Source: Candidatus Firestoneibacteriota bacterium
GTDB lineage: Bacteria; Oederibacteriota; D2-FULL-39-29; JBBTED01
Assembly: GCA_038042445.1 (NCBI GenBank)
Contig: JBBTED010000017.1
Span: 1 to 12,980, forward strand
DNA length: 12,980 nucleotides
Reading direction: 5' to 3'
Position 1 is the stretch's first letter, and every line of letters starts with the position of its first letter. The translations under genes and the position numbers were made by a program. Of the stretch, positions 9,860-12,980 are shown piece after piece. Below the pieces are notes generated by a model. It was given only the letters and a program-made list of their open reading frames with translations. It searched no databases and had not been told where the DNA came from.

Positions 9860-9907
9860 AAACAATAAGTGTTTCATAATGAAACACTTATTGTTTCATA
9901 TAAGACA
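9860..9907. promoter_or_regulatory. Putative upstream activator sequence (bEBP enhancer)
   Basis: Perfect 37-bp palindrome 9860-9896 with core TGTTTCA-taa-TGAAACA (9870-9886), plus an adjacent second site TGTTTCA-ta-TAAGACA (9892-9907). Confidence 0.65.
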
Positions 9908-9968
9908 TTTTAAACTACTATATACTACAACTCAGTTAATCAACTCTGCAAATTATTAAATAATTCAG

Positions 9969-10109
9969 ACTGTGCCACAATCTACAAAAATCGGTTTTTC
10001 CGGGTCGGATAAATCCTGCCCCTACAAAAACATTTGCATTTATTGATGATTGTAGGGGCTTGATTTATCAAGCCCGATAAATCAATGAAATTTATAATTG
10101 TGCCACAGT
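9969..10109. mobile_element. MITE-like element with 13-bp TIRs enclosing two GTAG REPs
   Basis: ACTGTGCCACAAT (9969-9981) / ATTGTGCCACAGT (10097-10109), 12/13 match. REPs cgggtcggataaatcctgcccctaca (10001-10026) and tgtaggggcttgatttatcaagcccg (10051-10076). Confidence 0.6.
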
Positions 10110-10154
10110 ATAATTTTCAAGTATTTTTAGAATATTAATCAACTTTTTCATTTT

Positions 10155-10170
10155 TGGCATACTTCTTGCA
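10155..10170 (+). promoter_or_regulatory. Sigma54 (-24/-12) promoter of groES-groEL-dnaK
   Basis: TGGCAT-acttc-TTGCA against the consensus TGGCAC-N5-TTGCW, with exact GG-N10-GC spacing; predicted TSS near 10181. Confidence 0.8.
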
Positions 10171-10308
10171 TTATATATAGTAACACAGTAAAATAATAGG
10201 TTGGGCGTGCCCTATACCCGAACGAAGTGAGTAAGTTTAGGACTTAAACCCAATCAAGTAAAAACCCTATACCATTACGGTATAGGAAAAAGAAAGGAGT
10301 GATAAGAA

Positions 10309-10599
10309 ATGGCAGTGAAACCGTTAGAAGATAGGATACTGGTTAAACCAGTAGAACAAAAGGAACAGAACAAAGGTGGAATAATTATTCCGGATACTGC
10401 AAAAGAAAAACCTGAAGAAGGAAAGGTTATTGCAGTTGGAACAGGCAAAACTCTGGATAATGGACAAAAAAAAGCAGTTGAAGTAAAAAAAGGCGACATG
10501 GTATTGTTTGCCAAATATGCAGGCACTGAAATTACAATAGACGGCGAAAAACATATGATAATGCGTGAAGACGAGATTTTAGCTGTAATTGAAAATTAA
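10309..10599 (+). CDS. groES: Co-chaperonin GroES
   Basis: [47 protein letters not shown]. Confidence 0.98.
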
Positions 10600-10625
10600 T
10601 TGCTTTTTAAAAGGAGGGAAACAAG

Positions 10626-12254
10626 ATGGCAAAACAGATATTATTCGATGAAGATGCCCGCAAGGCACTACAACGAGGACTTGACACAGTAGCAAATGCT
10701 GTGAAAGTAACTTTAGGACCAAGAGGTAGAAATGTTGTTATAGATAAAAAATATGGTGCACCTACCATAACAAATGATGGTGTAACTGTAGCAAAAGAAA
10801 TTGAACTCCCGGATCCTTATGAAAATATGGGTGCACAGCTTATAAAAGAAGTTGCAACCAAAACTTCAGATGTTGCAGGAGATGGAACTACAACCGCAAC
10901 AATATTAGCACAAGCAATATACAGAGAAGGTTTAAAAAATGTTGCTGCAGGCGCAAATTCAATTGCATTGAAACGCGGTGTTGATAAAGCAGTTATCGCT
11001 ATTGTTGAGGAACTAAAAAAGATATCCAAACCAATAAAGGATAAAAAAGAAATAGCTTCAGTTGCTACAATTTCTGCACACAATGATCCAACAATAGGCA
11101 ATTTAATAGCAGATGCAATGGAAAAAGTCGGCAAAGATGGTGTAATAACAGTTGAGGAAGCAAAAGGTATGGAAACAACTTCAGAAGTTGTTGAAGGTAT
11201 GCAATTTGACCAAGGATACCTTTCCCCATATTTTGTCACAAATGCAGAAAAAATGGAAGCCTCACTTGATGAACCATACATTTTAATCCATGAGAAAAAA
11301 ATAAGTGTAATGAAAGACCTTTTACCTTTACTTGAAAAAGTCGTGCAAAAAGGTAAACCTCTTTTAATTCTTTCCGAAGAAGTTGAAGGCGAAGCGCTTG
11401 CAACTTTAGTCGTGAATAAATTAAGAGGAACATTACAGATTTGCGCTGTGAAAGCACCAGGCTTTGGTGACAGACGCAAAGAAATGTTAGAAGATATCGC
11501 AGTATTAACAGGCGGTACTTTCATTGCAGAAGAAGTAGGAATAAAACTTGAAAATGTTTCACTCAATGATCTTGGAAAAGCAAAAAGAGTAGTTATTAAT
11601 AAAGAAAATACCACTATCGTAGAGGGATCAGGCAAAAAAACAGATATTCAAAGCAGAATTGCTCTGATTAAAAGACAGATGGAAGACACAAAATCTGATT
11701 ATGACAAAGAAAAACTTCAGGAAAGATTAGCAAAACTTGCAGGTGGAGTAGCAGTACTTAATGTAGGCGCAGCAACTGAACCTGAAATGAAAGCAAGAAA
11801 ATCTTTAGTTGAAGATGCTTTACATGCAACAAGAGCCGCTGTCGAAGAAGGAATAGTACCAGGCGGTGGAATAGCTCTACTTCGCTGCATTAAAGTACTT
11901 GATACACTTAAACTTGCTGGTGATGAACAAATTGGCGTAAATATTATAAAGAGAGCATTAGAAGAACCAATTCGCCAGATTGTAACAAACGCAGGTTTAG
12001 AACCTTCTGTTGTAGTTGAGAAAGTAAAAAATGAAGCAGTAAATATAGGCTACGATGCACATAAAGGCGAATATGTCGATATGGTGAAAGCAGGAATAAT
12101 CGATCCTTGCAAAGTTACTCGCTCTGCATTACAAAATGCTGCGAGTGTAGCTGCTTTAGTACTCACAACAGAAACAATTATCACTGATATTCCAGAAAAA
12201 GAAAAAGCAATGCCTCCAATGCCTCATGGTGGTGGTGGCGAAGGAATGTATTAA
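10626..12254 (+). CDS. groEL: Chaperonin GroEL
   Basis: [38 protein letters not shown], Gly/Met C-terminal tail; RBS AAGGAGG. Confidence 0.99.
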
Positions 12255-12261
12255 AAAAGAA

Positions 12262-12297
12262 ACAGGGGGGGCAATAAAATGCCTCCCTTGTACTTTA
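12262..12297 (+). terminator. Hairpin after groEL (weak terminator or mRNA stabiliser)
   Basis: ACAGGGGGGGCA-ataaaa-TGCCTCCCTTGT followed by only a short T tract (acttt). Confidence 0.55.
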
Positions 12298-12307
12298 AAT
12301 AGTAGTC

Positions 12308-12358
12308 GTAGGGGCGAGTTTACTCGCCCAATAAACGGGCAGGTAAACCTGGCCCTAC
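12308..12358. repeat. 51-bp REPIN, copy 2
   Basis: One mismatch against 6350-6400. Confidence 0.85.
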
Positions 12359-12385
12359 AATAAAAATTTAAAAGGGAGAAAAGCT

Positions 12386-12980
12386 ATGGCTAGAATAATT
12401 GGAATAGATTTAGGCACAAGCAACTCAGCTGCTGCTGCAATGGTTGGAGGCAAACCAACAATAATTCCAAGTGCAGAAGGCACAAGCTTAGGTGGAAAAG
12501 CATTCCCATCTTATGTGGCTTTTACAAAAGACGGACAACGATTGGTTGGAGAGCCGGCAAGAAGACAAGCTGTTTCAAATACTGAGGGTACTGTTATTGC
12601 TATAAAGCGAAAAATGGGAACAGATTATAAAACAAAAATTTATGGCAAAGAATATACTCCTCAACAGATTTCAGCTTATATTCTTCAAAAAGTAAAACAA
12701 GATGCAGAAGCATTTTTAGGAGAAAAAGTTGAAAAAGCAGTTATAACCTGTCCTGCTTATTTTAATGATAATCAACGTCAGGCAACCAAAGACGCAGGAA
12801 CAATAGCAGGCCTTGATGTAGTAAGAATAATAAACGAGCCAACAGCAGCATGTTTATCTTATGGACTTGATAAAGCAAACAAAGAACAATAAATATTAAT
12901 TTTTGACTTTGGTGGCTGATCACTTTACGTAACAATTATGGATATGGCGGAAGGCGTATTTACTGTTGTGTCAACAAATG
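12386..12980 (+). CDS. dnaK: Chaperone DnaK (Hsp70), 5' part; apparent stops at 12890 and 12917 are probably sequence errors
   Basis: [39 protein letters not shown]. Homology continues in frame past the stops: [30 protein letters not shown]. Confidence 0.93.

Follow-up and report, generated by a model that had tools for sequence, protein, structure and literature searches.

Heat-shock genes of bacteria are classically controlled by sigma-32, by HrcA and its operator CIRCE (controlling inverted repeat of chaperone expression), by HspR, or by CtsR. The DNA analyzed here (the window) is a 12,980-nt stretch from a Candidatus Firestoneibacteriota bacterium, the whole of contig C17 (JBBTED010000017.1), and its last part carries groES, groEL, and the beginning of dnaK, preceded by a sigma-54-like promoter sequence and a long palindrome. 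A gene for a putative sigma-54 activator is located about 3 kb upstream of this chaperone operon region (Table 1). The groES of the window is the sole groES found in the parent assembly (G000; 2.81 Mb, 181 contigs, 31.9% G+C, rated 90% complete), and the sequencing runs that contain window DNA are groundwater metagenomes.

Promoter and palindrome upstream of groES

The sequence TGGCATACTTCTTGCA lies 154 nt upstream of the groES ATG and has its GG (10156-10157) and GC (10168-10169) doublets exactly 10 nt apart, as the sigma-54 class requires; transcription is predicted to start near 10181. The original prediction, made from the letters of the window, had called this a near-consensus -24/-12 motif, and it proves to be an exact match to a pattern expected only 0.02 times per window by chance and matched in 4 of 200 shuffles. 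The exactness matters because the pattern with one mismatch is not rare, with 1.2 matches expected per window and 139 of 200 shuffles matching. Genome-wide, the exact pattern is present in 21 copies, and the same half-motifs spaced 4, 6, and 7 nt apart are present in 3, 11, and 3 copies, respectively. The gene for sigma-54 itself, rpoN, which had been named as a point to check, is present on contig C63. We consider it very likely that the promoter is of the sigma-54 type. Consensus sigma-54 promoters also precede large genes at C96:19137, C160:6543, C95:2877, and C36:24371 of the same assembly, and two of the large genes behind its other sigma-54 promoters start with a similar GNFGK..FDG.DD motif.

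The palindrome is as perfect over 37 bp as originally described, with 18-nt arms that are 100% complementary and 1 nt apart, and of all perfect palindromes in the 2.81-Mb genome whose spacer does not exceed 3 nt, it shares second place in arm length. Its core, TGTTTCA-TAA-TGAAACA (9870-9886), contains GTTTCATAATGAAAC at 9871-9885, the only perfect consensus match in the genome and the core of the proposed activator site, centered approximately 303 nt upstream of the predicted start. In a site matrix built from eight relatives with the window left out, the palindrome scores 20.7. The second tandem site claimed beside it could not be upheld, as only the GTTTCA left half is kept at 9893-9907 and the matrix score is 2.3 versus 20.7.

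Between the proposed activator site and the promoter lies an element resembling repetitive extragenic palindromes (REP) or miniature inverted-repeat transposable elements (MITE), flanked by direct 9-nt copies of TGTGCCACA at 9971-9979 and 10099-10107, set 128 nt apart. This element was probably inserted there, lengthening the distance between site and promoter by 128 nt. REP-like elements with GTAGGGGC...GCCCCTAC ends are found at 6350-6400, 9996-10081, and 12308-12358, that is, before the activator gene, between site and promoter, and between groEL and dnaK, and the two 8-mers occur in 37 and 54 copies in the genome, respectively.

Table 1. Features of the 12,980-nt window
Feature	Position	Strand	Basis or remark
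Predicted sigma-54 promoter, TGGCAT-N5-TTGCA	10155-10170	+	exact TGGCAY-N5-TTGCW match
37-bp perfect palindrome, proposed activator site	9860-9896		arms 9860-9877 and 9879-9896
Weak second site, left half GTTTCA only	9893-9907		22 nt from first site (direct repeat D1)
Putative sensor-less sigma-54 activator (AAA+, AAA lid, helix-turn-helix HTH_8)	6422-7366	+	PF00158, PF25601, PF02954 on two halves
groES (Cpn10, 96 aa)	10309-10599	+	PF00166, E 2.4e-34
groEL (Cpn60, 542 aa)	10626-12254	+	PF00118, E 1.5e-81
dnaK, 5' part, truncated at contig end	12386-12980	+	PF00012
Predicted 5' leader, 128 nt	10181-10308	+	fold
Leader hairpin	10266-10286	+	9 nt upstream of ribosome-binding site GGAG (10296-10299), which it does not cover
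12-pair hairpin without T run, after groEL	12262-12291	+	sequence and fold
REP/MITE-like inverted-repeat element	9971-10107		arms 9996-10027 and 10050-10081; repeats I1, D4
Two oxidoreductase/epimerase genes	7577-9603	-	
DUF3786 gene	5697-6299		
Sugar-metabolism cluster including LacI-type regulator	1-5607	-	

Conservation among relatives and apparent absence of HrcA/CIRCE and sigma-32

GroES was found in 38 of the 41 genomes searched, which comprised the parent assembly, 12 further members of its class, and 28 members of the phylum from outside that class, and the best 30 of these 38 groES loci were compared (10 from the class and 20 from other classes). All 10 class loci carry the strict TGGCAY-N5-TTGCW motif 81-154 nt before the groES ATG, L009 and L011 being near-identical to each other; across the 20 loci from other classes it was not found. 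By weighted score, the related form GGCAY-N5-xTGCA was recognized in 5/5 groES loci of family f6. Sites of the GTTyCA-N3-TGrAAC type are present further upstream of the promoter in each of the 10 class loci, and the class relatives all carry two 15-mers, GTTyCAwwATGrAAC, approximately 100-170 nt upstream of the -24 element. With the site matrix, all five f6 loci score 10.6-17.0, and the other 15 loci reach 7.6 at most. In family f5, a full-score sigma-54 motif and such sites precede dnaK-groES-groEL in three of the four loci fetched, and a related activator is encoded some 3.7 kb upstream. Relatives keep both the -24/-12 motif and the palindrome type upstream of groES, and a lack of such conservation had been named as refuting the original prediction. 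Seven loci of families f2 and f3 (L004-L010) additionally share a TTGAyAAAGGTGTkrATAA-type box between sites and promoter, about 60-100 nt before the -24 element, which may be a site for integration host factor or another bending site; the window carries TGTGCCACA in its place.

It is conceivable, though we think it improbable, that the real promoter is of the sigma-70 type, either TTGGCA-16-TATAGT (10154-10181) or ATGAAA-18-TATAAT (10085-10114), and that the -24/-12 look is incidental, or that both promoters act together with sigma-70 providing a basal level. Both sequences matched 10 of 12 positions in a consensus scan, a basal level of expression is required for groESL as a normally essential operon, and every class relative has a TATA-rich stretch behind its -12 element. 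However, sigma-70-like matches in the window are no commoner than in shuffles (10 found versus 9.0 expected), and the second of the two lies partly within the inserted repeat region. The TATA stretch of the relatives begins 11-12 nt after TTGGCA or CTGGCA, too close for a -35/-10 pair, and the overlapping sigma-70-like match of the window is therefore not a conserved feature. The GG-N10-GC spacing, on the other hand, is exact in 10/10 class loci.

The same comparison bears on the palindrome, which might instead be a repressor operator, analogous to CIRCE or to the HspR-associated inverted repeat (HAIR), or serve the divergent epimerase gene as an insulator or as a terminator working in both directions. 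We regard this as very improbable. The perfect 18-nt-arm hairpin was flagged as terminator-like on the minus strand in a scan, but no gene runs into it, as the left neighbor (8611-9603, minus strand) has its start facing the palindrome and groES lies downstream. The sites of relatives are short, imperfect tandem 15-mers without long stems, 100-170 nt before the promoter, which is the geometry of an enhancer rather than an operator, and in other phyla, short activator genes are followed by this motif.

HrcA/CIRCE and sigma-32 appear to be absent from this class. No CIRCE was detected within 500 nt upstream of groES (up to 4 mismatches) or in the whole genome (up to 3 mismatches), which bears out the earlier observation that the operon lacks one. 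The two regulators that had been singled out for checking gave the same picture. First, hrcA was not found in any of 13 class genomes, six of which are at least 90% complete. Second, no match to the rpoH model passes the cut-off in class genomes (best 136-150 bits versus 323), and a sigma factor of about 277-297 aa that scores 136-148 bits on this model fits the RpoD and RpoS models better (265-308 bits). Across the phylum, hrcA was found in 0 of 23 genomes of families f1-f6, compared with 12 of 18 genomes of the remaining families. CIRCE is present in 8 of the 20 non-class groES loci (8 of 15 outside the class and f6), all from hrcA-positive genomes. By comparison, rpoN was found in 11 of the 13 class genomes. 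In five genomes of families f9, f13, and f14 (G017, G023, G029, G034, and G039), hrcA was likewise not found, four of the five groES loci were read and carry no CIRCE (that of G029 was not read), and the best activator matches are 454-467 aa long with 51-55% identity; a version of this system with a receiver domain may operate in these genomes.

The proposal of a wider protein-stress regulon stood for the groES-groEL-dnaK operon and gained no further member: the parent assembly yielded no additional tandem site accompanied by a sigma-54 motif, and clpB, hsp20, lon, htpG, and grpE/dnaJ were not located in it individually. The site consensus with up to two mismatches gave 30 matches, compared with 26-39 in scrambled controls. 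The top tandem-site matches (on C42, C63, and C2) were rejected because they fall in coding or REP-like DNA with no sigma-54 consensus motif nearby.

The chaperone operon and the sensor-less activator

A 705-nt gap separates the epimerase genes (end at 9603) from groES (10309). Within this divergent intergenic region, a perfect 23-nt inverted repeat with 52 nt between its arms is located at 9692-9789; it has only chance-level plant-microRNA matches in Rfam, and the Rfam scan of the window as a whole gave two weak matches of this kind, far below the gathering score, which we took as chance. The leaders of class relatives fold into a hairpin of 5-8 pairs about 10-15 nt before the ribosome-binding site, which is left uncovered, and the sequence of the hairpin varies; the leader hairpin may be an mRNA-stabilizing or processing element. 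In a related strain from run X4, the promoter up to the -12 element and groES are kept, and 79 other letters replace 115 of the leader (10171-10287).

In all six relatives with a contig that holds both genes (G001, G002, G003, G004, G005, and G007), dnaK is found downstream of groES in the same orientation, with a spacing that leaves room for groEL, and the gene order is thus conserved. No promoter motif was noticed when the groEL-dnaK spacers of the window and relatives were read by eye, and a single transcript covering the three genes, with read-through into dnaK, is the simplest and likely reading of the sequence. This is qualified by a GC-rich hairpin without a T run that occupies the 70-140-nt spacer in the window and in 6/6 relatives examined, followed in the window by a REP-like element (approximately 12308-12358), and attenuation or processing at this hairpin is possible. 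The dnaK frame of the window contains an in-frame TAA (12890) and TGA (12917), which are assembly errors, neither the mark of a pseudogene nor of a code change, because neither stop is present in contigs from other studies (runs X4 and X7). At 12890, 12917, and 12920, where the window has T, these contigs have A, G, and A, which removes both stops and restores the usual DnaK motif; at 12926 the X4 contig has G for the T of the window. An alternative code with TGA as glycine was also ruled out, since groES and groEL end in TAA and the other runs read A and G. The remainder of dnaK is probably located at the end of contig C38, where HSP70 positions 253-598 are matched (C38:42272-43306).

The activator gene is in two pieces (6422-6739 and 6749-7366) that together encode 314 residues, with only five before the AAA+ domain and thus no N-terminal sensory domain. 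Alignment with orthologues shows a Walker A motif (GETGTGKE) and a loop of the GAFTGA type (GSFTGA), and the C-terminal HTH_8 domain is matched with an E-value of 2.5e-13. The closest solved sequence is ZraR (1ojl, E 1.5e-75), and no NCBIfam equivalog claims the protein. Orthologues with open frames of 321-357 aa are present in 11 of 12 class relatives (query, the G001 orthologue; E 1e-137 to 1e-213), a clear copy being absent from G008, and the short activator is 49-58% identical across the class. In families f2 and f3 the gene follows those for L25, pth, and a ComEA-like protein, and in G005 it adjoins tig; expression together with housekeeping genes is therefore probable. Apart from the chaperones themselves, the activator has no conserved partner gene beside it.

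Six strong PF00158 matches, including the window gene, are found in the parent assembly, and four of the five other full activator genes adjoin an exact sigma-54 promoter match, the exception being one on C128. In G003 (94% complete) and G006, no strong PF00158 match was found besides the short activator. The exact promoter pattern has seven matches in these two genomes, and only the one before groES is intergenic with upstream sites, as is the case in G003 taken by itself. It is probable, judging from this co-occurrence, that the activator at 6422-7366 is the cognate activator of the groES promoter.

The same arrangement is found in other lineages. With the G001 activator protein as query, 80 related loci were gathered, most of which encode longer activators (445-594 aa) with unrelated neighbors (kinases, thioesterases, and methyltransferases) and were set aside as paralogues. 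Ten short activators of 322-373 aa lie outside the class (L079, L084, L104, L108, L112, L113, L119, L127, L132, and L144), and in 10/10 of these loci dnaK, or hsp20 and then dnaK, follows 80-400 nt downstream; the order is dnaK-groES-groEL in L079 (Desantisbacteria) and hsp20-dnaK in L104 (Eisenbacteria). The spacer contains GTTTCA-N3-TGAAAC-type sites (up to 4 mismatches) in nine of the ten loci, with none in L132, and a strict sigma-54 motif in five; that of L079 repeats the "GAAACAC-TTATTGTTTCA" arrangement of the window. In a quick tree, for which the careful search was unfinished and eight rows were left out (L041, L043-L047, L034, and L036), L079 and L084 group with the window activator and the class orthologues (Shimodaira-Hasegawa-like approximate likelihood ratio test, 95), in a clade that also holds forms of 445-460 aa, and a second group of short activators is separate. 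In two f6 loci (L195 and L196), a sigma-54-like motif and a GTTTGAT-N-ATGAAxC site come right after a related longer activator gene.

Proposed control of the chaperone operon and its precedents

The sigma-54 holoenzyme is unable to open DNA alone and needs an ATP-driven activator. As such, groES-groEL-dnaK would be transcribed from the sigma-54 promoter with a start near 10181, from which dnaK may be read through. The sensor-less activator would bind the GTTTCA-N3-TGAAAC palindrome at 9871-9885, assemble into a ring, reach the promoter by DNA looping, and supply the ATP-driven promoter opening. Ring formation, looping contact with sigma-54, and ATP-driven opening are established for this activator family, and their operation at the groES locus is suggested by analogy. 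Genome comparison shows that promoter, site type, gene order, and activator family are conserved together, which supports the original idea of sigma-54 control through an enhancer-binding activator. We think it likely that this module controls the operon in place of HrcA/CIRCE and sigma-32.

Several observations weigh against this reading. The proposed site of the window lies about 275 nt before the -24 element, a greater distance than in relatives, with a degenerate partner site; in addition, the sigma-70-like TTGGCA-16-TATAGT (10/12 positions) overlaps the promoter. The link of the activator protein to the palindrome is one of co-occurrence. The searches for rpoN were negative in G012 (87% complete) and in G005 (96% complete), and the latter carries both promoter and activator, which is hard to accommodate unless its rpoN is unassembled. 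The short activators do not form one clade in the quick tree, and at least five state changes are required. All relatives are incomplete metagenome-assembled genomes, and the search of G003 covered all but 8000 of its bases. Finally, the window activator has an in-frame TAA (6740-6742) where orthologues have the Walker-B glutamate (FLDE), and if this stop is real, the activator is dead in this genome. The contigs compared neither confirm nor correct it, those of run X1 breaking off at 6736 and resuming at 6742.

This stop at an essential residue would suit the view that another activator, for example the 461-aa one on C128, which has no adjoining exact promoter match, serves the groES promoter, and that the window gene is a decaying pseudogene whose target has been lost. 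We hold this to be quite unlikely. The promoter and/or the short activator are retained in G003 and G006, where no other strong PF00158 match was found, the short activator is conserved across the class at the level given above, and at the end of the window contig four substitutions to T are proven errors, to which the TAA of the activator may add a fifth.

With sigma-54 and the short activator taken as the controlling pair, PspF of Escherichia coli is the nearest model for the signal. PspF consists of AAA+ and HTH only, without a sensory domain, and is controlled in trans by PspA. The window activator has the same composition, and since it has no sensory domain, its control must come in trans as well. 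It differs from PspF in that the PspA family (PF04012) is absent from 5/5 genomes searched, in that three relatives of the protein score 249-274 bits against the PspF model cut-off of 443.55, and in that its target would be chaperones, not psp genes. Because the activator lacks a sensor domain, because no PspA-like partner was found, and because only the chaperones are conserved beside it, we offer the tentative guess that free DnaK or GroEL keeps the activator inactive or unstable until unfolded proteins titrate the chaperones away. Such feedback is favored here over constitutive activity or turnover control, again as a guess. It is equally speculative that the smallest class genomes (such as G003, 1.7 Mb) keep rpoN and one sensor-less activator only for groES-groEL-dnaK, that the chaperones restrain the activator, and that activator, site, promoter, and chaperones are one ancient cassette, which excludes HrcA/CIRCE wherever it is present across many uncultured phyla. 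If true, the sigma-32/DnaK feedback loop would have a counterpart here in a sigma-54 system.

HrcA/CIRCE and sigma-32 act on the same target genes, and other classes of the phylum use CIRCE at groES and hrcA at the frequencies given above. Here, by contrast, CIRCE, hrcA, and an rpoH equivalog were not found, and the proposed control is positive and ATP-dependent, rather than repression or sigma replacement. In Bradyrhizobium japonicum, the groESL3 operon depends on NifA and sigma-54, and thus is also a groESL operon under a sigma-54 activator. It is co-regulated with the nif genes (Fischer et al., as cited in PMC6604987). However, groESL3 is one of several copies and is tied to nitrogen fixation, whereas the groES described here is the only one found in its genome.

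Sigma-54 promoters of chaperone genes are already known, having been mapped in Flavobacterium and predicted in Bacteroidota and Planctomycetota. In Flavobacterium psychrophilum, mapped starts with the sigma-54 motif SM4 precede groES-groEL, dnaK, grpE-dnaJ, lon, htpG, and clpB, and the passages concerned leave the activator open among three candidates (Guérin et al. 2021, PMC9723704). The likeness consists of the -24/-12 elements before groES-groEL and dnaK, the requirement for an enhancer-binding activator, and a phylum without sigma-32-type control of these genes. The Flavobacterium regulon is wide and made up of separate loci (lon, grpE-dnaJ, htpG, and clpB), whereas here one operon holds both machines, with one recognizable site and a candidate activator. 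An in-silico survey of sigma-54 regulons (PLoS One 2025, PMC12316311) reports promoters enriched at the GroEL, GroES, IbpA, GrpE, DnaJ, and DnaK groups in Planctomycetota and Bacteroidota; 'Firestone' and 'Fibrobacter' are absent from its main text, and its passages on these groups name neither activator nor binding site. These two phyla provide the precedent, which had first been sought in Desulfobacterota, where it was not borne out: for delta-proteobacteria, sigma-32 and CIRCE are reported (Rodionov 2004, PMC545781). A literature search, with most subscription journals outside its coverage, returned nothing on how Firestonebacteria regulate their genes, and no paper in which a sigma-54 activator of heat-shock genes is named.

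Dependence of the essential chaperones on sigma-54 and an ATP-driven activator is emerging in more and more phyla, and this locus would bring in another. The published accounts cited here lack a named candidate for the activator and a binding motif; both are now available, are common to several phyla, and open the way to a direct test. Moreover, the either/or pattern with hrcA inside one phylum (0/23 versus 12/18 genomes) makes these bacteria a natural system for studying how a core stress circuit is swapped.

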